In this document: piece after piece, positions 8,629-36,581 of the stretch
Layout of the letters: the number at the start of each line of letters is the position of its first letter
Position numbering within the stretch: position 1 is the first letter of the stretch
Origin: a virus
Lineage: Duplodnaviria > Caudoviricetes
Reading direction: 5' to 3' (one strand)
IMG/VR virus record: IMGVR_UViG_3300042471_001765
Span: 1 to 55,846 of that record
DNA: 55,846 bases
Notes under the pieces: model-generated
The model's input: the letters and a program-made list of their open reading frames with translations, nothing else
Database searches by the model: none
What the model was told of the DNA's origin: nothing
Translations under genes and position numbers: made by a program

Positions 8629-8720
8629 ATATGCAACCTCCTACAGGCATCTTAATTATACACTCAACACACAAGAACCGATATACTACCAAGAACAAAA
8701 AAAATATTTTTATTTACCCC

Positions 8721-8772
8721 TTGACAAATAAAAAGTATCAGGATACTATAAAGGGGTAAGCAACAAAGAGGT
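8721..8772 (+). promoter_or_regulatory. Strong promoter with palindromic operator and RBS
   Basis: TTGACA (8721), 17 bp, TACTAT (8744); perfect palindrome AGTATC-AG-GATACT at 8734-8747; RBS AAAGAGGT. Confidence 0.75.
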
Positions 8773-10030: not shown

Positions 10031-10732
10031 ATGACCTGGGTAGATCCGTTAGAAGACGGAAAAAGCAAAATAAAACTAATAGCAGCACTGGGGAGCGACT
10101 TAGACATTGTTAATGATGCTAGGGCAAGCTTTGAGAAAACATCCACACAGCTAAGTGATAAAGATATTAAACTCATTCATTACCTAATCAAGCACCAGCA
10201 CACAAGCCCTTTCCGGGGTACTGTCTTCAAATTTAAAATTAAAGCTCCTTTGTTTGTTTGTCGCCAATGGTGGAAGCACGTCATCGCCAGCAATCATAAT
10301 GATGAGCAACTAGGATGGAATGAGAAAAGCTTTCGATATGTTGAGATTGATGATAGTAGTGAATTTTATATTCCTAAAATTTTTCGTCAACAGTCCAAGA
10401 ATAACAAACAAGCCAGCGAAGGTAAATTACCTGAAGATGCTAATCAGCAAGCAATAGAAATTTATACTCAACAGTGCCAAACTAGCTATCAAGCATACCG
10501 CAATCTTCTAGAGTTAGGAGTGGGACGAGAACAAGCCCGTGGCGTATTAGTTCCCTCTGTGTACACTTCTTGGGTCTGGACTGTTTCCCTGCAAGCTGTT
10601 TTACACTTTATCTCATTGCGTAGTGGTGCTGGCGCGCAAAGTGAAATTGGCGCTTATGCTGAAGCCATCACTTCCCTCATTAAACCCATAGTCCCCATAT
10701 CAATAGAGGCTTGGGAAACTCACTATGGCTGA
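10031..10732 (+). CDS. thyX: FAD-dependent thymidylate synthase
   Basis: ARASF, HQHTSPF, RQWWKH, WNEKSFRY, REQARGVL and HFISLR...AQSEI ThyX motifs (cyanobacterial type). Confidence 0.93.
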   Translation: MTWVDPLEDGKSKIKLIAALGSDLDIVNDARASFEKTSTQLSDKDIKLIHYLIKHQHTSPFRGTVFKFKIKAPLFVCRQWWKHVIASNHNDEQLGWNEKSFRYVEIDDSSEFYIPKIFRQQSKNNKQASEGKLPEDANQQAIEIYTQQCQTSYQAYRNLLELGVGREQARGVLVPSVYTSWVWTVSLQAVLHFISLRSGAGAQSEIGAYAEAITSLIKPIVPISIEAWETHYG

Positions 10733-10874
10733 AAAACCACAGACTCCAACCAGGTGTAACAGCCTGGTTTTTTTGTGCCTACTGATAAATAGGTATAAAA
10801 ATATTTTTAAAATTAAGTGTTGACTTTTCAAAAATATCAGTATACTATATAAGGGTAGAGAAAAAACAAAGAGG
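10733..10874 (+). repeat. Cassette repeat copy 1: terminator + promoter + RBS (~140 bp)
   Basis: ACCAGG-tgtaacag-CCTGGT-T-tract; TTGACT (10820), 17 bp, TACTAT (10843); AAAGAGG. Near-identical to 11185-11327 and 11794-11925. Confidence 0.95.
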
Positions 10875-10880
10875 TAAGCA

Positions 10881-11186
10881 ATGAAATTATTAACCGCACT
10901 CGTACCCGTTAAAAAAATAAGCTGTAGTCAGCCCTGCATCTGGAACGAAGACTTCCTAAATACAGCAGCACAGTCTATTTTAGAATCCAAAGGAGTTATC
11001 AACCCTATAGTGGTTCGCCGAATAGATTTACGATCTTACGAGTTAGTGAATGGAGTACTTGAATACTATGCGGCTGTTAGAGCTAGAGAAATAGATCCTG
11101 GCGAAGGAGAGATGATCACTGTATTCATTGTGGAACCAGAGAATGAAGAAGCTTTAACCAAGCAAATAGAAATATTTAGAAGATAA
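10881..11186 (+). CDS. Stand-alone ParB/Srx N-terminal-like domain protein
   Basis: GVINPIVVRR...YELVNG...YYAA resembles the ParBc core; the GH.R motif is altered. Confidence 0.6.
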   Translation: MKLLTALVPVKKISCSQPCIWNEDFLNTAAQSILESKGVINPIVVRRIDLRSYELVNGVLEYYAAVRAREIDPGEGEMITVFIVEPENEEALTKQIEIFRR

Positions 11187-11327
11187 AAACCACAGACTCC
11201 AACCAGGTGTAACAGCCTGGTTTTTTTGTGCCTACTGATAAATAGGTATAAAAATATTTTTAAAATTAAGTGTTGACATTTCAAAAATATCAGGATACTA
11301 TATAAGGGTAGAGAAAAAACAAAGAGG
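11185..11327 (+). repeat. Cassette repeat copy 2: terminator + promoter + RBS
   Basis: Near-identical to copy 1; TTGACA, 17 bp, TACTAT. Confidence 0.95.
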
Positions 11328-11330
11328 CAA

Positions 11331-11570: not shown

Positions 11571-11786
11571 ATGAAAGTAATTAGAGTTAAAAAAAATAAC
11601 GCTACCGCGGCACTAGCCGCTATTCCTGGATCAGCTTTTACCCGCTGCCCGGACTACGATTGGCAAAACGGGCTAAGTGACGACCACACCATTCCCGCAG
11701 CGGGAATGGTAGGGCTAAAGTTACCGGACGGGATGTCCGGTAAGCAAGCGCACAAGCTGCTAAAAGAAGCGGGAATTGTGAATTAA
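11571..11786 (+). CDS. Hypothetical protein
   Basis: GGAG RBS before the ATG at 11571 (MKVIRVKK...). Confidence 0.65.
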   Translation: MKVIRVKKNNATAALAAIPGSAFTRCPDYDWQNGLSDDHTIPAAGMVGLKLPDGMSGKQAHKLLKEAGIVN

Positions 11787-11793
11787 TCCATCT

Positions 11794-11925
11794 TCCAACC
11801 AGGTGTAACAGCCTGGTTTTTTTTTGTGCCTACTGATAAATAGGTATAAAAATATTTTTAAAATTAAGTGTTGACATTTTAAAAATATCAGGATACTATA
11901 TAAGGGTAGAGAAAAAACAAAGAGG
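11794..11925 (+). repeat. Cassette repeat copy 3: terminator + promoter + RBS
   Basis: Near-identical to copies 1 and 2. Confidence 0.95.
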
Positions 11926-11937
11926 GAACAGGGAACA

Positions 11938-12560: not shown

Positions 12561-12944
12561 CTATTCAAAAGACACAAAATCAACCAGGTGTAACAGCCTG
12601 GTTTTTTTGTATCGCTCGATCGCTTCCTCTAGCTCCCAGAAAATAGGAGCGCCAACAGCCGATATGAGCCGATCGCTCCGATACTTTCCGGTGGTGATTT
12701 CTTGCTTAGAGAATCCCAACTGGATAAGTGTTTCGTAGGAACCTAGTAGAGGGATGAATTCCTCAAGCCGAGCAATACTCAAATTACCATCCTTAAATTG
12801 CACCGGGAATATATCGCGGTTGTCAGCTACCTGTGGGGGCTGTTCCGTTGCGATCGCGATGGTAAATGGCGGATCCGGTGGGTGGATAAGGGCATCCCTG
12901 ATGGTGAGTACAGATACCAATCTGCCAGAAAGATAGTTATTCAT
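12561..12944 (-). pseudogene. Csf1 (type IV Cas8-like) C-terminal fragment
   Basis: LIHPPDPPFTIAIA, RDIFPVQF and LGFSKQEITTGKY recall the PPEPPF region of Csf1-like proteins; the N-terminal Cys motifs are absent. Confidence 0.45.
12581..12610 (+). terminator. Fourth, terminator-only copy of the cassette repeat
   Basis: caaccaggtgtaacagcctggtttttttgt is identical to the hairpin in copies 1-3. Confidence 0.85.
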
Positions 12945-16539: not shown

Positions 16540-18078
16540 ATGACAAACCCGGCGGCTAATCCCTTCGCTAGGGATAAAGATTTATTTGCACCATTATTGA
16601 TTCGAGAGAGGATACTAATGGGATTGTTCGCTACCACCGCAGTTGTGGGATGCTTTGCTCCGGTGATGTGGAATTCCCAGAAAAATGAAGTAAAGCTATT
16701 GCAGCAAATTTACGGATTATTTGCTGGTACGTGCTTTACAGCCGCTGCTTACCATCGCAAGCAAAAGGAACAGACTTACCAGGCAATCTCAGAAGCCAAC
16801 TACAAGATAGTGAATGAGCATCTAAAGGGAGTATTTGCCTACGAGGCATCACGCCAGCAAATAGAAAGCAAGCGAGAATTAGCAGAATATGTAAATTCTC
16901 TCCCATCTTACGAGCGGGAAAGATGGATGAATCAGTATGGATTACATGGATTGGTAGAGCTTCCCCAATTCCAGGAAGCAGAAATTTTACCTCAACCGCA
17001 ATTATCAGGGATGGAAATCCCTGATCCTGAGATTGCAGCAATAAATGAAGATGCAGTACAGAGCATCATCAACCCAGATGCAATGCAAGTGTTGCAGCAA
17101 TACGCAGCACAGTATCCCCAATACATCAGATTAGATGATCGCTGGATTGATGATCTATGTGGTGCTGCATCCAACCCAGATATGAAGAGCCGATACAACC
17201 ATCATTTCATGTTGGTTGGTGGTACTCAATCGGGTAAATCCACACTAGCAGGGGTGATTGTAAATAAAATCGCATCTCGCTCACAATCACCCGCCATAGT
17301 CTTGGGCAGTGACCCCAAGGATCAAGTTACCCAGTGGCTGTGTAAATTCAGCCGAAAGTTTGATGGAATGAAGGCTTTGGATTCCTGGATCTCCTTTGCC
17401 ACCGAGGTCATCCAACAACGCAAAGATCAAATAGGAGGGAATAACGGTACTGAGGGTATAGCAGAAATATTTTTTTTACAGGATGAAGTAGATACTTGCT
17501 ACGGTGGTGGTAACGGATTCCCCGGCATGGTGGAAAAAACCACGGCTAAAAATCTACAAGCACTATGGAATTACATCGCCAAGTTTACGGCGGGCTTGAA
17601 GTGTCACGGTATTTTTATGGGGCAATCACCATTGAGCGAGGCGACTGGATTTAGCCGACCAAATCTAAAAAACATCTGTTTCATGGCTTTGGGACAATTA
17701 AGCTCCTACATCCTTAGTAAACCCACAGATTTTCTCAATGTCAAATCTGAAATTATCGATTTACTCAAAGAAGTATGCAGCTTACTAGATGATGCAAGAG
17801 TACGCTATGCCCTGGTAGTGCCTACAAGAGGTAATCCCTACGTGGCTTTAATCCCCACTTTTGATATTGAGGGATTAGAGCAAAAAAGCACTACAAGAAA
17901 TCAAACCGACACAGTTGACGCTGTGAACTGGTATGAGGAATTACAAACCTGGTTTAATTCGCTAGGGAGGAAACCATCCGATCAGGAACTACAAGAACAA
18001 TGGGAAAAGATAACAGGAAAAACACTAAACGCGAAAGGTATTGCGCTATTGCAAGAGAAGCTGGCAGGCAAGACATGA
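16540..18078 (+). CDS. Membrane-anchored P-loop ATPase (FtsK/HerA/coupling-protein-like)
   Basis: Two N-terminal hydrophobic helices, HFMLVGGTQSGKST Walker A, DPK, FFLQDE Walker B and a GQS motif. Confidence 0.7.
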   Translation: MTNPAANPFARDKDLFAPLLIRERILMGLFATTAVVGCFAPVMWNSQKNEVKLLQQIYGLFAGTCFTAAAYHRKQKEQTYQAISEANYKIVNEHLKGVFAYEASRQQIESKRELAEYVNSLPSYERERWMNQYGLHGLVELPQFQEAEILPQPQLSGMEIPDPEIAAINEDAVQSIINPDAMQVLQQYAAQYPQYIRLDDRWIDDLCGAASNPDMKSRYNHHFMLVGGTQSGKSTLAGVIVNKIASRSQSPAIVLGSDPKDQVTQWLCKFSRKFDGMKALDSWISFATEVIQQRKDQIGGNNGTEGIAEIFFLQDEVDTCYGGGNGFPGMVEKTTAKNLQALWNYIAKFTAGLKCHGIFMGQSPLSEATGFSRPNLKNICFMALGQLSSYILSKPTDFLNVKSEIIDLLKEVCSLLDDARVRYALVVPTRGNPYVALIPTFDIEGLEQKSTTRNQTDTVDAVNWYEELQTWFNSLGRKPSDQELQEQWEKITGKTLNAKGIALLQEKLAGKT

Positions 18079-18877: not shown

Positions 18878-19465
18878 ATGCAAGTATTAATTTGGGGAGA
18901 TTACGCCTGCTTCACGCGTCCGGAATTGAAAGCAGAGCCATTTTCGTACAATTACCCCACCTTTAGCGCGATCACAGGGGTGCTAGAGAATATCTACTGG
19001 AAGCCTGAAATGAAATACAAAATTAATTTTATTTTAGTTTGCAATCCAATTAAGAGGGCAAAATTTAAAATTAATGGCATCCAGGATAAGGCAAAAATAT
19101 CCAACATTGGCGGGATTCTAGCCGATGATTATAGTGTGCGCACACAAAGGAATTTAAATGTTTTGAAAAATGTGCGATATGTAGTAGATTTTGAGATTGA
19201 TCCACAGCGAACCGTGGACATCAAAAAACACAATTCCATCATCTACCGAAGGATTGAAAAAGGACAATATTATCACCATCCATGCCTGGGGTTTAAGAAA
19301 TTCCCTGCTTATTTTTCATTTCCAGTTGGTGATGAAAAAGGGCATCCATCCTTACTAGATGAGGAATATGTGGCTTTAAAGTACCTAAATTTTACAGGAA
19401 GCAAGGTCAAGCCTGAGTTTGGAATTTATCAAATTACGAAGGGTAAAATATGCTGCTTGAATTAG
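18878..19465 (+). CDS. cas5: Type I-C Cas5 (Cas5c/Cas5d)
   Basis: WGDYACFTRPELKAE..SY..PT.SA..G.LE.IYWKP and Y..PCLG...FPAYF are diagnostic. Confidence 0.95.
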   Translation: MQVLIWGDYACFTRPELKAEPFSYNYPTFSAITGVLENIYWKPEMKYKINFILVCNPIKRAKFKINGIQDKAKISNIGGILADDYSVRTQRNLNVLKNVRYVVDFEIDPQRTVDIKKHNSIIYRRIEKGQYYHHPCLGFKKFPAYFSFPVGDEKGHPSLLDEEYVALKYLNFTGSKVKPEFGIYQITKGKICCLN

Positions 19466-21003
19466 CCGAATTAGGCAAAAAATTAGAAGCACAAGGGTTA
19501 TTGGCTCCTTTTGGCTATGGCTTTATATCCATAGCATGGGAGTTGATGCTAAATGAAGACTCTGTAGATATAATTCCAGTGGCTACAGATTCAAAGCTAA
19601 AAACAAAAAAAATGTGTATTCCCGACATTGCTAGGAATAACACAAATCCCATCGCTCCCTGCGATAGTGCCGAATATGTACTAGGCTTAGGCGATCGCGG
19701 TGAATCGAGACACCAAAAATACTTGAATCTTCTCAAAGAATTGTACGGAGACCTGGAACTAGGACGCAAATTACATCAAGTCTTGACAGAAAAAAAATAC
19801 ACTGTTCCCACAAAAATGAATAGTGGCGATCGCTTGGTTATCAGCTTCGATGGTGTGTTCTTACATGAATTACCAGAATTTAAATCTCGGTGGATTTTAT
19901 ACGTAAATTCACAGCAAGAAACAATTACTGGAACTTGTAGCTTATCGGGTAAGGAATGCCAGGCTTTTGAAAAAACCATCCCAAAAAAGATCAAAGGCGT
20001 GCGGGGAAGCTTATCTTCTGGTGCTGCTTTAATCAGCTTCGATAAAGACTTCTCTCAAAGCTATGGATGGAAAAATAATGAAAATGCCTTAATAGATAAA
20101 GACATAATCTTACTAGCGTACCGATCGCTAGAATGGATTTTGAATGAAAAAACAACCCACTGGCATTGTGGGAACGATGATCTGACTTTCATTTTTTGGG
20201 GTGACGCTAGCGAGGGAATCCATGATGATATTTGGAATAGCGACATCACTAAAATCGACGGTGCTTTTACATCACTGGATGGTAATGGTTATCGTCGGAA
20301 ATATCCTCTATCTAATAGCTTTGTTTTTTGCACTCTCAAGGGCAACAGCGGGAGGATTTCGTTAGAAGATGTTGGAAAGATTAGCGCCGAAAACATTAGA
20401 AGCAACATAGAAAGATTTTTCCAGGATCAATTAATCAATGAATCCTGGAAACCTTACCCCATATGGCGACTAGTTTCTACAATGTACAAAAATCCAAAAA
20501 AAGAGTACACGAAAGATATTAAAAAATCACTTGCTGAATTAATGCTTTTTGGTACTCCATTACCTCGAAAAGTGGTAACATTATTATTAGCTAGAATATA
20601 CGCCGATCGCGACATAAAAAGCAGAGCCAATATTTTAGCCTTGTATGCAAAAACAACATTACTTCAAAATAAGAAGATGAAAAGTAAACAAGCAGAAGCT
20701 TTAGGACGCATAGCTTTTTGCCTGCATCAAGCACAATCCATCCAGAGAGGGAGTAGCAATACAAACATTATCAAATGTTTAAAAGCCTTAGCCCATTATC
20801 CTTGTAAACATTTTCATAGACTTTTAATCTCTTTTCAAAGAGATTATTTCCTTGTCACCCTATCCACTCGTATAGGTGAGCTATCGAGGGGATTAGAAAT
20901 ACCGGAAACACTTACAAAAGAAGAGCAGACCGTATTCATGCTCGGATTCATACAGGAACAAGATGAATACTGGTCCGCTAAAAACAAAGAGGTAACTCAA
21001 TGA
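19450..21003 (+). CDS. cas8c: Type I-C Cas8c (Csd1)
   Basis: D.AEYVLG, CSLSG, KIKGV, GAALISFDK...SYG and KGNSGRIS motifs; located between cas5 and cas7. Confidence 0.9.
   Translation: MLLELAELGKKLEAQGLLAPFGYGFISIAWELMLNEDSVDIIPVATDSKLKTKKMCIPDIARNNTNPIAPCDSAEYVLGLGDRGESRHQKYLNLLKELYGDLELGRKLHQVLTEKKYTVPTKMNSGDRLVISFDGVFLHELPEFKSRWILYVNSQQETITGTCSLSGKECQAFEKTIPKKIKGVRGSLSSGAALISFDKDFSQSYGWKNNENALIDKDIILLAYRSLEWILNEKTTHWHCGNDDLTFIFWGDASEGIHDDIWNSDITKIDGAFTSLDGNGYRRKYPLSNSFVFCTLKGNSGRISLEDVGKISAENIRSNIERFFQDQLINESWKPYPIWRLVSTMYKNPKKEYTKDIKKSLAELMLFGTPLPRKVVTLLLARIYADRDIKSRANILALYAKTTLLQNKKMKSKQAEALGRIAFCLHQAQSIQRGSSNTNIIKCLKALAHYPCKHFHRLLISFQRDYFLVTLSTRIGELSRGLEIPETLTKEEQTVFMLGFIQEQDEYWSAKNKEVTQ
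20677..21003 (+). CDS. cas11: Putative Cas11c from an in-frame internal start in cas8c
   Basis: In-frame ATG after AAGAAG giving MKSKQAEALGRIAF...EEQTVFMLGF, matching the LGR...F.LG domain known to be translated separately in type I-C. Confidence 0.6.
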   Translation: MKSKQAEALGRIAFCLHQAQSIQRGSSNTNIIKCLKALAHYPCKHFHRLLISFQRDYFLVTLSTRIGELSRGLEIPETLTKEEQTVFMLGFIQEQDEYWSAKNKEVTQ

Positions 21004-21806
21004 TAACGCAATCCACAACGCGCCATGACGCGATGGCATTCATAGAAGTAATCGACGGGAACCCCAACGGTGACCCGGATAACAATAATGAGCCACGCAG
21101 TGATATATCGACTGGACAAGGGTTGATATCTGATGTGTCCCTCAAAAGGCAAATCAGGAATACCCGCACCCTGAGCGGGTATGATGACATCTTCATCAAA
21201 CAAGGGGCTGCACTAAACGCACTGATGGAAGAGTGCTGGGGTAAATCTAAATTCAATTTAAACACCGACAGGGAAAATATCACCAACATTTTAATTGAAA
21301 AATACTGGGATATAAGAATGTTTGGGCAAGTCCTCAGTACAGGAAAAACACCAGGCTACCCTGTCCGGGGGTGCTTACAGATATCTTTCGGACGCTCCCT
21401 AGATCCGATTGAAATAGCCGAACACACCATTACCCGGTGTGCTAGCGCCAAACAGGAAGAAGAAAAAGAAAATAAAACCATGGGGAATAAAATGACAGTC
21501 CCGTATGGACTTTACACCTTTCGCATTGCTTTTTGCCCAAACAATAAAGCTAGTGATGAAGATTTAGAGTTTTTCTGGCAAGCTCTAAAATCTTGCTGGG
21601 AACTGAATAGATCAGCTAGCAGGGGGTTTATGGCGACAAGGCAAATAGTAATTTTCTCCCATGAAAGCCGTTTAGGATCAGCCCCGACACATGATTTGTT
21701 TGATACTGTATCTGTAGCCAAACAAGTTGAATTCCCCAGAAAATGGGAAGATTACAAAATTACTTACAAGGATATTCCAGAGGGGATATCCAGAACCATT
21801 TTGTAA
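21000..21806 (+). CDS. cas7: Type I-C Cas7 (Csd2)
   Basis: GNPNGDPD..NEPR, SDVSLKRQIR, DIRMFG, TITR and MGNK..VPYGLY motifs. Confidence 0.96.
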   Translation: MITQSTTRHDAMAFIEVIDGNPNGDPDNNNEPRSDISTGQGLISDVSLKRQIRNTRTLSGYDDIFIKQGAALNALMEECWGKSKFNLNTDRENITNILIEKYWDIRMFGQVLSTGKTPGYPVRGCLQISFGRSLDPIEIAEHTITRCASAKQEEEKENKTMGNKMTVPYGLYTFRIAFCPNNKASDEDLEFFWQALKSCWELNRSASRGFMATRQIVIFSHESRLGSAPTHDLFDTVSVAKQVEFPRKWEDYKITYKDIPEGISRTIL

Positions 21807-21811
21807 TTCCT

Positions 21812-21832
21812 TAAGCCCTTCGGGGCTTTTTA
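21812..21832 (+). terminator. Hairpin between cas7 and cas3
   Basis: AAGCCC-TTCG-GGGCTT followed by a T-run. Confidence 0.65.
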
Positions 21833-21836
21833 ATAA

Positions 21837-23822
21837 ATGCAAAAACAATTTTATGCTCGCATCTCAGATTCCCGCGGGCAACTTCTAAAAAATCACCTCT
21901 TGGAAGTTGCCAACCTAATGAATGAAAGATCCAAAGAAAAATTCAGGATTTACGCTTATTACATAGGCTTATGGCACGACTTAGGCAAATACAGAGAAGA
22001 ATGGCAGAATTACTTGATTAATGCGATCGCGGGCAAGAACCAAGAGCGTATTCATCACGCAGGGTATGGTGCTTGTGTATGTGAGCATCCTGTAATTAAT
22101 GGAATTATCGCGGGTCACCATAGTTCTATCAAGCCGCCGGAGCAAATAGGTGAAAATAGTATGGCTTTCGCTAAATACGAGAAAGAATATCAAGAATGTA
22201 TTGCCAACGCCACCCAAGAGATACCCCACTTTATCCAAGAAATTCCCAGAATCAAGCAAGCGCCAAACAATCGAGATGTAATGGCGAGGATGCTTTACTC
22301 ATTACTGATTGATAGCGATCGCTTAAATGCCCACTGCTTCTCAACATCCACCGATTGGAATGAGATTATTGATAATTCCGGCAGGGTGGTAATCAATATT
22401 AATATTCCCAGACACAATGAAAATACCTCAATCAATTCACTAAGAAATAAGTTTAGAACCACAGCCCTAAAAGCAGCCAAGAACAAACCAGGGTTGTACA
22501 AGCTCACCGGAGCCACAGGAATAGGCAAAACATATACAGCTTTTGAGTTTGCAGCATTGCACAACAACTTTAACAAAATGAATGGAGTTGTTTATGTTGC
22601 TCCTTTTAATAGCATATTAGACCAGACATCATCAGCAATTCACAAAATAGTTGAAAACGAAATACTAGATCACTATGGCAGCTTTGACAATTCAGACTCA
22701 CCAGCCATGCGCATTTCCTGTTCTCGGTGGGACAAACCAGTTATCTTGACTAGCATGGTACAACTGCTATCTAGTATGTTCAGCGATCGCGCGACGAAAG
22801 TCAGGAAATTACAAGGCTTAATCGATAGAGTAATCATCATTGATGAACCCCAATCTTTACCAATAAAATGCATTACTCCCATCCTAAATATGTTGTCTGC
22901 ATTAGTGGAAGATTGGGGATGTTCGGTAATATTCATGTCCGCCACGCAACCAGTATTTAATAATATTGGCACTTGGAATTTTCAAGATATCATCTCAAAA
23001 GATTTTCATCGCGATCACTCCTTAAAGCGAGCTAATTATAAATACTATCCAGAGCCAATGAAGTGGAAAGAATTACAAAATAAAGTTTGTTTGGAGTCAA
23101 TGGCATTAATTATTTTCAGTACCACTCAAAATGCCAGAGATTTCTATCATCAATTAAAAGTAGCCACCGACAAACCAGTACTGCATTTAAGCAGTAAGAT
23201 GTACATCCTGCATCGCAAGCAAGTATTAAGCCAAGTCCGTCGGTTGTTGGCAGAAGACAAAGATTTTTACTTAATCTCTACCCAAGTAGTAGAAGCTGGA
23301 ATTGATCTTGATTTTCCCTGTGTATTCAGGCAAATAGCCCCTATTCCTTCAATCATTCAAGCCCAAGGACGACTTAACAGAGAAGGTAAAAGAGACCCCA
23401 AAAATTCATGGCTACACATTTTTAATCTTGCAGAAGGAAACATACTGCCAGAAGATATCAAAGGCGCGGCAATTTCTCACACCCTATTAACACAAAACAA
23501 AGATTTAAATGACCTCAATGACATCTATTATCGTCGCTACTTGACAACCACCACCGACACCGGAGAAGAAATCGAAGCCCTCAGATACCAACAAAAATAT
23601 GATCAAGTAGCCGAAAAATTCAACATCATAGAAAATCAAAACACAGTCCTGGTTTTAGCTGAAGATTTTTTGAAAGACTATCAATATAAATCCCTCACAC
23701 CATCAGATTGGCAGATACTGCGATCATATACAGTCAACACCAGATCAAATAATTATATTGAATGGATAAATGGTATTTTGTGCTGGAATGGTGGGTATGA
23801 TGAGTGTGGAATTATGATATAA
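21837..23822 (+). CDS. cas3: Cas3 HD nuclease-helicase (compact, 661 aa)
   Basis: H..HDLGK, GHH and LIDSD (HD domain); TGIGKT, IIIDEPQ, MSAT, TQVVEAGIDLDF and QAQGRLNREG (SF2 helicase). Confidence 0.95.
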   Translation: MQKQFYARISDSRGQLLKNHLLEVANLMNERSKEKFRIYAYYIGLWHDLGKYREEWQNYLINAIAGKNQERIHHAGYGACVCEHPVINGIIAGHHSSIKPPEQIGENSMAFAKYEKEYQECIANATQEIPHFIQEIPRIKQAPNNRDVMARMLYSLLIDSDRLNAHCFSTSTDWNEIIDNSGRVVININIPRHNENTSINSLRNKFRTTALKAAKNKPGLYKLTGATGIGKTYTAFEFAALHNNFNKMNGVVYVAPFNSILDQTSSAIHKIVENEILDHYGSFDNSDSPAMRISCSRWDKPVILTSMVQLLSSMFSDRATKVRKLQGLIDRVIIIDEPQSLPIKCITPILNMLSALVEDWGCSVIFMSATQPVFNNIGTWNFQDIISKDFHRDHSLKRANYKYYPEPMKWKELQNKVCLESMALIIFSTTQNARDFYHQLKVATDKPVLHLSSKMYILHRKQVLSQVRRLLAEDKDFYLISTQVVEAGIDLDFPCVFRQIAPIPSIIQAQGRLNREGKRDPKNSWLHIFNLAEGNILPEDIKGAAISHTLLTQNKDLNDLNDIYYRRYLTTTTDTGEEIEALRYQQKYDQVAEKFNIIENQNTVLVLAEDFLKDYQYKSLTPSDWQILRSYTVNTRSNNYIEWINGILCWNGGYDECGIMI

Positions 23823-23830
23823 TGGGGGGA

Positions 23831-24006
23831 GTAACAATCCCTCGCAAGGGGGGTTGAGGATTGTAATTAGGAAGCGCTAGATTGTCAGGGCTTAACGGTA
23901 ACAATCCCTCGCAAGGGGGGTTGAGGATTTTAACATCGAAATACACCCAAAAAAGCGCGCGAGCCGGGAGTAACAATCCCTCGCAAGGGGGGTTGAGGAT
24001 TGTAAC
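23831..24006 (+). CRISPR. Mini CRISPR array: three 37-bp repeats, two spacers (30 and 35 nt)
   Basis: Repeat GTAACAATCCCTCGCAAGGGGGGTTGAGGATTGTAAC at 23831-23867, 23898-23934 and 23970-24006 (at most 1 mismatch each). Spacers TAGGAAGCGCTAGATTGTCAGGGCTTAACG and ATCGAAATACACCCAAAAAAGCGCGCGAGCCGGGA. Confidence 0.93.
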
Positions 24007-24050
24007 GAGGATTGCAACAATGTAACAACCACGGAGCCATATCAGACAGT

Positions 24051-24090
24051 AATAAAAACACCCGGTGCGGCAACACCGGGTTTTTATTTA
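24051..24090 (+). terminator. Terminator closing the CRISPR transcript
   Basis: acccggtg-cggcaa-caccgggt-ttttattt. Confidence 0.75.
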
Positions 24091-32552: not shown

Positions 32553-32710
32553 AAAAGAATTTTAAGCCCCAATCACCACCGGGGCTGGTGGTGGCGCAGC
32601 AACCAAAACCGAACCTAATCGGTATGGATGGGTTCCCATGGCTCAAGCCAAGATACACCTGGGCAGATGCACCAGGGTGAGTGAAACTTGCCTATAGCGA
32701 TGAGGTAACA

Positions 32711-33559
32711 ATGAAAACAATAACAATGGTAGTCCCCAGCTACCTTGACGACTGGGGACTCAACCCCTATGAATTTCGTGTTTATTGCCGCATAGCCCGG
32801 CAGGCTGGTAAGTCGGGATGCCTTGAATCTATAGCATCTATGGCGCAGGCGTGCCTAATGGATGCCAAATCGGTGCGTAAAGCCATAAAAAGGTTGCTGG
32901 CAGATAAGCTAATCCGGGCGATCGCAGCACCGGGTAATCCTACCAGATATGAGCTTAATCCCATGGATGAATGGGAAGCTGCAAAGCGGGAACCCCTGCC
33001 AGATATGGTAGACCCCCCCTGCCAGATCCGGCATACCCCCCCTACCACATTAGGTAGCCCTACCCCTACCAGATCCGGCATACCCCCCCTACCAGATATG
33101 GTAGACCCCCCCTGCCAGATCCGGCATACCCCCCCTACCAGATCCGGCATACCCCCCCTGCCAGAAATCCCATCTAACAAGGATTTCTCAATGCCATCAG
33201 GATTTTCCCCACTTTCTGGAAAAAATCCAAGAACAGGAAAAGAGTATTTTCCTTGGCAAGGAATTCAGAATGGGCGCATTGCCAACAATCCTGAATTTTT
33301 GGAATTTGTAGCGCGATCGCTTACCTCCAAATACGACCATTACAAAAATCTACAACTCCGAGAGCTTCCCATTGAAATTAAAAATTATGTAAATCGCGCA
33401 CAGCATGATTTACAGCGTGAGGAGACTATGTGGGAGTACTGGAATATTTTTACATCAAATCAAAAGGAATTCTTGCCTCAAACCATGAGTGTAAATGAGG
33501 TAAAAACAATCTCCGCTTTGGAGAAAATGACACAAAACCTAGTAAACAAAGGATACTGA
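32711..33559 (+). CDS. Replication initiator (N-terminal winged HTH, internal iterons)
   Basis: LNPYEFRVYCRI...SIASMAQAC.MD..SVRKAIKRL winged-HTH pattern; central tandem repeats as in lambda O-type initiators. Confidence 0.75.
   Translation: MKTITMVVPSYLDDWGLNPYEFRVYCRIARQAGKSGCLESIASMAQACLMDAKSVRKAIKRLLADKLIRAIAAPGNPTRYELNPMDEWEAAKREPLPDMVDPPCQIRHTPPTTLGSPTPTRSGIPPLPDMVDPPCQIRHTPPTRSGIPPLPEIPSNKDFSMPSGFSPLSGKNPRTGKEYFPWQGIQNGRIANNPEFLEFVARSLTSKYDHYKNLQLRELPIEIKNYVNRAQHDLQREETMWEYWNIFTSNQKEFLPQTMSVNEVKTISALEKMTQNLVNKGY
32993..33166. repeat. Iteron-like tandem repeats (about 8 units of 22-23 bp); probable origin
   Basis: CCCCT(G/A)CCAGAT(ATGGTAGA/CCGGCATA)CCC units inside the initiator gene. 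Confidence 0.85.
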
Positions 33560-34760: not shown

Positions 34761-35659
34761 AAATCGGATCAATTTGTAGTGGCATGGGAATGGCTTTACA
34801 TGGCTTAGGAGATCGCGTCTGGGGCATTGAGTATGATCCTGCCATAGCCGACATTTACCAAGCCAATCATGGCTTAGGTATTATTTGCAGTCCAGTAGAA
34901 AAAATAAGCCCGGATACCTTGGAAGATGTGGACTGCATAGTAGCCACGCCTTCATGTATCCGAGCCTCTAAAGCCAATTATAGCAATAGCCCAAAAACCA
35001 GGGAAACTAGCGATGATCTTAGTGTAGCATGGGCGATCGCTAACATTATCAGCAGAAAGCTCCCTAAGTTTTTCATCTTGGAAAACGTCCCAGGATACAA
35101 AACTTTTGAGAGCTACAACACGATCATCAAAACATTATACGCCAATCAGTATTATGTTCGTACTCAAAAACTAAATCTAAAAAATTTCGGCATAGCTCAA
35201 AGTCGCGATCGCATCTATGTAATGGCTGTCCGCAATGGTTTTTTTATGGATATCGTACCACCGAATAAAAATATGGGATGGTATGAAGCGATCGCGGATA
35301 TAGTGGATACACTGCCAGATACAAAGCTGACTTCTTGGCAGCATCCCGTGGGTGATTGTTTATTTCGTAGGTGTGGGGCTAATAAATCCAACAATAGATT
35401 GTATGCCCCCCACGAACCAGTTTTCACCATCAGAGCCTATGGCAGAAAAGCAGGGGGACATTGGCATCAAGCCGATATCTCTATTGGTGGCAATTTCAAA
35501 GCACTAACACCCCAAGCTGAATTACGATTTTTTGGGGATAAAAAAACAGCCGACAAGATTAAATTGCCAACCTCCAAAGCCTTGGCTAGCGAGGTAGTAG
35601 GTAATGGCGCTAGTTGGGAGATCATGCAAATCTTACTAAATCACATGGTGAAAAAATGA
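34757..35659 (+). CDS. C5 cytosine DNA methyltransferase
   Basis: ICSGMG, TPSC catalytic motif, ILENV, QSRDR and VGN. Confidence 0.85.
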   Translation: MKIGSICSGMGMALHGLGDRVWGIEYDPAIADIYQANHGLGIICSPVEKISPDTLEDVDCIVATPSCIRASKANYSNSPKTRETSDDLSVAWAIANIISRKLPKFFILENVPGYKTFESYNTIIKTLYANQYYVRTQKLNLKNFGIAQSRDRIYVMAVRNGFFMDIVPPNKNMGWYEAIADIVDTLPDTKLTSWQHPVGDCLFRRCGANKSNNRLYAPHEPVFTIRAYGRKAGGHWHQADISIGGNFKALTPQAELRFFGDKKTADKIKLPTSKALASEVVGNGASWEIMQILLNHMVKK

Positions 35660-35865
35660 AAAACATTGATCATCCATCTCATTACAATAGCGGCGAAATT
35701 GAGTGCATTGATGCGATCGCTTCGGCACTCACACCAGAAGAATTAGCTGGGTTCATTAAGGGCAATGTTGTCAAGTACCTATGGCGCTCCAATTCCAAAG
35801 GTAAACTAGAGGATTTAGAAAAAGCTGAATGGTACTTAAAATGGTATTTGCAAAAAAAACGATGA
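35656..35865 (+). CDS. DUF3310 family protein
   Basis: HPSHY..GEIECIDAI...GNVVKYLWR...EDLEKAEWYL. Confidence 0.9.
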   Translation: MKNIDHPSHYNSGEIECIDAIASALTPEELAGFIKGNVVKYLWRSNSKGKLEDLEKAEWYLKWYLQKKR

Positions 35866-35876
35866 CTGACTAACTA

Positions 35877-35910
35877 AAAAAAACCCTGTAATCGCTCGCT
35901 GATTACAGGG
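35877..35910. terminator. Terminator (T-tract on the minus strand)
   Basis: aaaaaaa-ccctgtaatc-gctcgct-gattacaggg. Confidence 0.8.
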
Positions 35911-35949
35911 CAGGCATTAAACACAAAAGAAAAAGACAAATCTAACATA

Positions 35950-35981
35950 TTTACAATCCCCCCCTTGCGAGGGATTGTTAC
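35950..35981 (-). CRISPR. Solitary variant CRISPR repeat
   Basis: Minus strand GTAACAATCCCTCGCAAGGGGGGGATTGTAAA equals the array repeat minus TTGAG; preceded by TGATATAATGGGG as at the array. Confidence 0.85.
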
Positions 35982-35999
35982 CCCCATTATATCACAGCT

Positions 36000-36581
36000 T
36001 CACACCGTGGCAACAGTGATCGCTTGGGGCTGATTTTGATATTTGCCAGAGCGATCGGCGTAAGTGGTTTGGCATGGTTCTCCTTCTAAAAATAGAAGCT
36101 GTATCACCCCTTCATTAGCATAGATGCGACAATCAGCACTGGAAGCGTTGCTAAATTCCAGGGTTAAAAATCCTTCCCATGAGGCTTCCGCTGGGGTGAT
36201 GTTTGCAATTATCCCACACCGTGCCATGGTTGATTTGCCAGTACAAATAACTGTGATATTGGCAGGTACGCACAACCTTTCTAAAGAGACACCCAAAGCG
36301 TAGGAGTTAGCAGGGATAATAAAAAACGATCCATCTTCATCTGTCCGCAGGGTGGCAGGTTCTAGGTTGTCAGGGTTAAACCGTTTAGGGTTAACAATCG
36401 TCCCTGGAATATGCCTAAAAATGCGAAAGTCTGTAGGAGCCAACCTTAAATCATAGCCATAGCTAGACAAGCCATAACTAATAACTCGCCTATCTTCAAC
36501 CATCCGCACCATAGAACCTTCAAAGGGCGCGATCATCCCTTGTTTGGCTTGTTCAATAATCCATTTATCGTTTTTCAGCAT
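36000..36581 (-). CDS. dcd: dCTP deaminase
   Basis: ISYGLSSYGYDLRL, GKST.ARCGI, TPAEA.WEG.LTLE and YADR.GKYQ.Q motifs. Confidence 0.95.
   Translation of the reverse strand: MLKNDKWIIEQAKQGMIAPFEGSMVRMVEDRRVISYGLSSYGYDLRLAPTDFRIFRHIPGTIVNPKRFNPDNLEPATLRTDEDGSFFIIPANSYALGVSLERLCVPANITVICTGKSTMARCGIIANITPAEASWEGFLTLEFSNASSADCRIYANEGVIQLLFLEGEPCQTTYADRSGKYQNQPQAITVATV

Follow-up and report, generated by a model that had tools for sequence, protein, structure and literature searches.

On the minus strand of the genome of a lake cyanophage that encodes its own type I-C CRISPR-Cas effector operon, we identified a solitary CRISPR repeat unit composed of four parts, a promoter, a variant repeat, a spacer-like unique sequence and an intrinsic terminator, located between the dcd stop codon and the convergent DUF3310 gene. 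This unit does exist, and its origin in the phage's own array is clear. Its repeat reproduces the three array repeats (R1–R3) except for a 5-nt gap (TTGAG) and a changed last base, and 12.1 kb separate the unit from the position at which cas3 ends (23822). A first-pass annotation had described a lone repeat with its own promoter and terminator 12 kb from the cas operon; each of these elements was recovered in its place, and an alignment with R1–R3 confirmed that TTGAG is missing. What that annotation missed is that the deletion removes the predicted Cas5c cut site and, in the modeled fold, buries the handle in the stem.

The phage, its cas operon and its array

The DNA analyzed here (the window, 55,846 bases) is a linear virus record estimated to be ~51% complete. 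It carries a tailed-phage gene set, including a Mu F-like head protein, an amidase lysin, ThyX, an ERF recombinase and SSB, together with genes for ParB-like and PAPS-reductase-like proteins, DNA methylases, a class II ribonucleotide reductase and a dCTP deaminase. When the dcd region was compared with known phages, only cyanophages of Nostocales (filamentous hosts) matched, in 9 records at 60–80% identity. A GCGATCGC-type octamer, typical of cyanobacteria, was common in the repeat listing of the window. An Rfam scan of the window returned no family and a tRNA scan returned no tRNA, and Pfam scans of 40 window ORFs, a subset of all ORFs, gave no family named transposase.

Other features of the window were recorded alongside. 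An ORF with an HTH_36 domain (32681–33559) contains ~7.5 tandem copies of a 23-bp unit at 32993–33165, which look like replication-origin iterons inside an initiator gene. Cassettes of 70–146 nt, in which an identical terminator hairpin (four copies) is paired with a promoter-like element, are repeated at 8698–8767, 10732–10877, 11185–11330, 11783–11928 and 12581–12610, between small genes near thyX. Directly upstream of the cas operon, a 512-residue protein (16540–18078) gave a weak HerA/DUF87-type P-loop match.

The cas operon contains all four type I-C effector genes, cas5c, cas8c, cas7 and cas3 (Table 1). Against NCBIfam, Cas7/Csd2 and cas3_HD scored above their cut-offs, and Cas5c (82.3 versus 85 bits) and Cas8c (125 versus 219 bits) scored below theirs; taken with the Pfam matches, these hits bear out the type I-C assignment made at first pass. 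No Cas1 or Cas2 was found within the window, a record only ~51% complete from which half of the genome is missing. The array has no closing repeat, and therefore ends in the same layout of repeat, unique part and terminator as the solitary unit. The near-duplicate of the handle at 24007–24018 is predicted to pair with the true R3 handle in a 6-bp hairpin, and this modeled pairing may mask the handle of the last array guide as well.

A near-identical phage was present in contigs of four lake-water DNA runs (X1–X4). Of these, X1 is possibly the run behind the record and X2–X4 belong to other studies; no RNA run was listed as carrying the phage. Among the rows listed for these four lake metagenomes against the window, no letter differed within 35877–35995; since the contigs are near-identical, this comparison provides no evolutionary test of the unit's conservation. 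One contig from run X1 joins 23826 to 23966, skipping spacer 1, repeat 2 and spacer 2, a junction that may represent either an assembly collapse across the repeats or a genuine shorter array variant.

Table 1 Coordinates of the cas operon, the array, the solitary unit and its neighbors in the window, and of the units found after cas7 in two other viral loci
Feature	Position	Strand	Description or basis
Type I-C effector operon	18878–23822	+	Pfam, NCBIfam and structure-chain matches
cas5c	18878–19465	+	Pfam Cas_Cas5d 1.3e-16; solved I-C Cas5 chains 2e-26
cas8c	19450–21003	+	Pfam Cas_Csd1 8.4e-50
cas7	21000–21806	+	Pfam Cas_Cas7 2.7e-75
cas3	21837–23822	+	HD and helicase domains (Pfam)
Extended −10 before array	23815–23823	+	Overlaps the cas3 stop codon; no good −35 found
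CRISPR array	23831–24006	+	Three 37-nt repeats, two spacers; begins eight bases after the extended −10 element
Array repeats	R1 23831–23867; R2 23898–23934; R3 23970–24006	+	Repeat listing
Array spacers	Spacer 1, 23868–23897; spacer 2, between R2 and R3	+	Spacer 1 (between R1 and R2) 30 nt; spacer 2 35 nt
Array end	24007–24081	+	12-nt handle near-duplicate (24007–24018), unique sequence, terminator (24060–24081)
DUF3310 gene	35614–35865	+	Convergent with dcd; terminator region common to both
Intrinsic terminator of solitary unit	35911–35876	−	11-pair stem, 7-nt loop, then a run of 8 T; stem scan 35911–35883
Spacer-like unique sequence	35949–35912	−	38 nt, T-rich; sequence
Solitary variant repeat	35981–35950	−	32 nt; alignment to R1–R3
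Promoter of solitary unit	36013–35986	−	−35 at 36013–36008, extended −10 TGATATAAT at 35994–35986; scan
dcd, dCTP deaminase	36000–36581	−	Last gene of the minus-strand operon ending at the solitary unit; stop codon 36002–36000
Post-cas7 units	L103:10817–11100; L104:3254–3540		Two variant repeats with a 25-nt spacer, then hairpin, handle-like end, ~15 nt, apparent terminator-like hairpin and T run

Parts and predicted folds of the solitary unit

The predicted promoter is near-consensus, matching 11 of 12 positions with a 16-nt spacer and a TG ahead of the −10, and occupies the last dcd codons and the bases just beyond the dcd stop codon. The 1-kb region around the unit holds 2 promoter-like sites in all, no excess over shuffled sequences (mean 2.0), and the extended −10 pattern has only 4 occurrences on both strands of the window. 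As the first-pass annotation had noticed, the element in front of the array recurs in front of the solitary repeat: the 13-nt motif TGATATAATGGGG has exactly two exact copies in the window, at 23815 on the plus strand, before the array, and at 35994 on the minus strand. With up to 2 mismatches allowed, the motif gave 4 matches versus 2.28 expected, a count reached by 20 of 100 shuffles, so the motif alone is at chance level. The 18-nt repeat core occurs 4 times, three times in the array and once at 35978–35961 on the minus strand, versus 0.05 expected, and none of 100 shuffles reached 4. In the alignment, likeness to the array leader possibly extends 10–12 bases further upstream of the −10. 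Transcription is predicted to start at about the first base of the variant repeat. By the Racr yardstick of no further full or partial repeat within ~100 bp, the repeat is solitary: the only other copies of its core are those of the array ~12 kb away, and its flanks are unique.

The spacer-like part overlaps a 24-codon frame (35948–35874, minus strand) whose ATG lies one base past the solitary repeat; the frame continues across the terminator, reaches its stop codon where the T run ends, and is probably not translated.

The 107-nt RNA of the unit folds at −38.5 kcal/mol (z = −4.4), and none of 200 shuffles folded as well. Type I-C repeats are described as a hairpin with an 11-nt 3′ tail, the handle, which Cas5c cuts at the junction between the stem base and the handle (PMC8524198). 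The array repeat alone follows this geometry, with four free bases, a 9-bp stem, a tetraloop and 11 free 3′ bases (−13.9 kcal/mol), whereas the variant repeat departs from it: its predicted stem has 10 bp and takes in six bases of the handle, so that only 3 nt remain as a tail (−16.4 kcal/mol, z = −4.6). The first-pass annotation had claimed an 8-bp stem; the stem is upheld, but its predicted length is 10 bp. A weaker alternative fold of the variant, drawn by hand rather than computed, keeps the loop but has a 6-bp stem and a tail of 9 nt.

The five bases missing from the variant (TTGAG) are the final three of the stem and the first two of the handle, and they make up the Cas5c cut site. For one well-studied Cas5c, cleavage is described as needing the three bases just past the cut and a 3′ overhang (PMC8524198). 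With the cut site deleted and the handle predicted to be buried in the stem, ordinary crRNA maturation from the variant repeat is therefore doubtful, and the repeat may still bind Cas proteins.

Relatives, parallel units and target searches

We searched for relatives of the unit through its repeat, through Cas7 and through dcd. The repeat core was absent from viral contigs (0 stretches), and the gapped repeat pattern retrieved 15 stretches from metagenome contigs, all of them single and with no repeat-like flanks in the ~135 nt around each. Neither viral contigs nor genome contigs gave a match when Cas7 was used as the only query; besides the same Cas7 on a 69.8-kb contig, a Cas7 protein search gave one relative at 86% identity, on a 3.3-kb contig, and all others at ≤46%. 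From 169 dcd relatives, 80 loci (≤72% identical) were kept, none of which carries anything like the unit. Among the 14 of these 80 downstream regions that were read, L032 has the exact extended −10 nonamer just after the dcd stop and L005 has a near match, so the solitary promoter may either predate the repeat or have been copied along with it.

Lone and variant repeats were found in other phages with type I-C systems. A Cas7 profile search yielded 55 viral loci, and a full repeat consensus was obtained for 13 of them. Two of the 13 (L101 and L102, a single lineage whose Cas7 is 44% identical) carry a lone perfect repeat ~7 kb from their arrays. Searching five whole records (G001, G002, G053, G054 and G055) revealed two further lone repeats at a distance of ~33 kb from the arrays. 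They belong to G001 and G002, which represent the closest I-C-bearing viral lineage found (the one with the 44% identical Cas7); the other three records had no dispersed repeats. One unit of G001 follows an 89-codon gene whose promoter matches 11 of 12 positions; this repeat is one loop base off the consensus and has a strong terminator ~75 nt on. The other lies within a long non-coding stretch. In locus L156 (G001:49300–50900, minus strand, ~950 to 1), an 11/12 promoter opens ~900 nt without an ORF of at least 45 codons, with a lone repeat in its middle and no Rfam family.

In L103 and L104 (Cas7 42% identical), two variant repeats unlike the main array repeat stand right after cas7 with a 25-nt spacer between them, and one of these repeats has an 11-bp stem and an 11-nt tail. 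Behind them comes a further unit that bears a handle; its terminator-like hairpin and T run were read by eye and do not appear in the terminator scan listing. The region looks like a regulatory mini-array. The spacer-like parts of the L101 and L103 units gave no convincing self-target within their loci. Furthermore, an exact match to the 12-nt handle only was present away from the array in 8 of the 13 loci. Such lone copies lie ~2.6–3.3 kb upstream of cas7 at L108:2553, L109:3642, L117:7334 and L119:6953, and ~3.5 kb downstream of cas7 at L101:14321; they may be crRNA-like regulator sites of viral I-C loci. On sequence grounds, I-C systems carried by phages thus show lone or variant repeat units repeatedly. 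The units of other lineages mostly have intact repeats, and are therefore parallels, not proven homologues, of the solitary unit.

The first-pass annotation had proposed that the AT-rich spacer is suited to a promoter target, a proposal that the searches did not sustain. In the window, no 5′-TTC site with at least 8 consecutive seed matches to the spacer-like part was found in four registers on both strands, and the best partial match (23/35) was equaled by 112 of 200 shuffled spacers, which is chance level. The PAM-flanked match of ~9 or more bases to a cas or toxin promoter that characterizes CreR, CreA and Cracr is thus absent within this roughly half-complete genome. Known phages gave only chance-level matches (E ≥ 0.09). 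An exact 25-mer of the spacer-like part was absent from viral contigs, and when every sixth base was replaced by N, the resulting pattern had no match in the representative genomes of 185,579 species. Among 50 related dcd-phage records a single 17-nt match was found, and 50 viral records with I-C-like Cas7 gave only 14–17-nt matches in the T-rich middle.

The array spacers likewise had no targets in the searches done, with one mild exception. On the antisense strand of dcd in this phage, the site 36353–36382 agrees with spacer 1 in 21 of 30 positions, a score reached by 3 of 200 shuffles, and this site has no 5′-TTC ahead of it. At the same dcd site in loci L036, L038, L039 and L042, spacer 1 matches 20 of 30 positions, which hints at a rival phage's dcd as its target.

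Candidate roles of the solitary unit

The precedents that the first-pass annotation had invoked, solitary-unit RNA anti-CRISPRs (PMC10651486) and crRNA-like regulators (10.1101/2024.10.29.618823), are real, and the unit resembles each in part. Viral solitary repeat units behind promoters, of which 2,103 cases are described, act as RNA anti-CRISPRs (Racr) and mostly match the host's system; the survey reports no association of these units with cas genes, and a type I-C representative, RacrIC1, has been validated (PMC10651486). The solitary unit is likewise a single intergenic phage repeat directly behind a promoter, and the published units are made as small RNA. Unlike in those units, which mimic host repeats, here the repeat and the cas operon are the phage's own, operon and array standing in the same record, and the cut site is deleted. 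In the crRNA-like regulators of hosts and phages (see also 10.1101/2023.03.10.532045), a single repeat-like unit precedes a spacer-like part, which is closed by a rho-independent terminator or by a second repeat-like unit; what defines them is that ~9 or more seed bases, flanked by a PAM, match the promoter of a cas or toxin gene (10.1101/2024.10.29.618823; PMC10120712). Repeat degeneracy is described as typical of them, and type I-C examples exist (10.1101/2024.10.29.618823; PMC10120712). The solitary unit shares with CreR, CreA and Cracr the whole of this layout, a degenerate repeat followed by a spacer-like part and a closing terminator. However, CreR and CreA are described inside or beside cas loci, whereas the unit lies 12.1 kb from cas3, behind dcd, and no promoter seed match was found for it; and Cracr are described as hijacking host Cas proteins, whereas this phage owns its Cas proteins.

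A 2024 review distinguishes three kinds of CRISPR parts in viruses, namely complete systems, mini-arrays and single repeat units (PMC11656645), and cyanophage CL131 is described as carrying a different system, type V-U2 (PMC6293099). With the mini-arrays of that review, which serve in conflicts between viruses, and with complete phage-encoded CRISPR-Cas systems, the window has in common phage CRISPR parts without an adaptation module and a short, presumably fixed array. Mini-arrays, however, have at least two repeats around a spacer, whereas the unit has a single repeat with a terminator after its spacer-like part, and no rival-virus protospacer was found. Our literature search yielded no report of a phage with its own I-C effector genes and remote lone repeats, and such a case may be listed unremarked in a supplementary table. 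The first-pass view that the arrangement is undescribed thus agrees with this search, but the arrangement is not unique, for a second I-C phage lineage has dispersed solitary repeats. CRISPR-associated transposons keep a special guide apart from the array by means of a variant repeat or a remote position and handle it differently; the likeness is analogy only. The Pfam scans of the 40 window ORFs gave no family named transposase.

We tentatively prefer to read the solitary unit as a crRNA-like guide gene that consists of a single unit, is transcribed separately and would supply the phage's own Cascade with an RNA of altered processing. Most likely, the array promoter and first repeat would have been copied to the end of the dcd operon, where a strong host-type promoter would start the RNA at the first repeat base and the terminator hairpin would occupy the place of a downstream repeat hairpin. 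Because the TTGAG deletion removes the Cas5c cut site, the RNA would be cut poorly or not at all, and it might enter Cascade as an atypical guide keeping its 5′ hairpin or load less well than array crRNAs. The unit has the same extended −10 and repeat as the array and a better −35, a full I-C effector set including the Cas3 HD domain lies 12 kb away, and the array itself ends in a repeat, unique part and terminator without a closing repeat. The layout also fits the crRNA-like architecture documented so far (10.1101/2024.10.29.618823), and the lone near-canonical repeats of G001 and G002 and the stem and 11-nt-tail units after cas7 in L103 and L104 point in the same direction, as does a repeat that differs from those of the array by two discrete changes and shows no scattered decay. 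Against a guide gene, the cut site is gone and six handle bases are buried in the lowest-energy fold, no protospacer or PAM-flanked seed match was found in any collection searched, the unit is present in 0 of the 80 dcd loci (≤72% identical), and the units of other lineages are parallels rather than homologues.

The loss of the cut site would also suit a Racr-like decoy or attenuator, in which a highly expressed, uncleavable hairpin ties up Cas5c or Cas7 non-productively, whether the proteins belong to the host, to a rival phage's I-C system or, as a timing brake, to the phage itself; we consider this possible but rather unlikely. A solitary repeat right behind a promoter is described as the hallmark of viral solitary repeat units, among which a type I-C RNA anti-CRISPR has been validated (PMC10651486), the deletion stabilizes the hairpin (−16.4 versus −13.9 kcal/mol) as well as removing the cut site, the unit's promoter is predicted to be stronger than that of the array, and the spacer-like part had no target in the searches done. 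However, the repeat is that of the phage's own array, so a decoy would also strike its own system, and the solitary repeat units published so far are reported to lack an association with cas genes (PMC10651486). Moreover, no array with the repeat core was found in viral contigs, and the 15 metagenome stretches were all single, so no host system that the unit could mimic is known. A separate idea, mimicry of the Cas6-type repeats of cyanobacterial hosts, was considered and dropped.

That the unit is known from one phage only would also fit a recent, functionless duplicate of the array promoter and first repeat in front of a pre-existing terminator, an explanation we regard as unlikely. The extended −10 after the dcd stop in L032, with a similar one in L005, and the need of the convergent genes for a terminator in any case agree with it, but the repeat is free of scattered substitutions, the promoter is near-consensus, known crRNA-like genes have their start, repeat and terminator in the corresponding places, and dispersed solitary repeats recur in another I-C phage lineage. 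Quite improbable, in our judgment, is a Cas-independent product, either a small RNA in which the repeat hairpin is the 5′ stabilizer of a T-rich regulatory RNA or a translated 24-codon gene starting at 35948. The shape, in which a 5′ hairpin is followed by an unpaired, U-rich body and then a terminator, is common among small RNAs, and an ATG right after the repeat opens the frame. The frame, however, crosses the terminator stem, and its stop codon comes only where the T run ends, so that the majority of transcripts would be without a stop; no target was identified for a regulatory RNA, and the origin shared with the array points to a link with Cas.

Two points stand out, namely that the cut site has been deleted and that dispersed units recur among phages with Cas proteins of their own. 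Solitary repeats in phages have so far been read as anti-host-CRISPR tools of phages without Cas, whereas the effector system to which this repeat belongs is that of the phage itself, and another phage lineage shows the same habit. If the unit is a decoy, the phage would tune or shield its own CRISPR system through RNA. If such units are working guide genes, single guides would stand under separate promoters and could be timed separately, and the natural deletion of the cut site would offer a simple test of the role of Cas5c cleavage in Cascade assembly. A wider proposal, to which we give little credence at present, is that some phage-borne I-C systems without an adaptation module keep guides as dispersed stand-alone genes beside the array, and that loss of the cut site here would yield an uncut RNA and a distinct class of Cascade that binds its target for repression or timing rather than triggering Cas3. 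If this were true, guides would be sorted by repeat variant, as is reported for transposon-associated systems.
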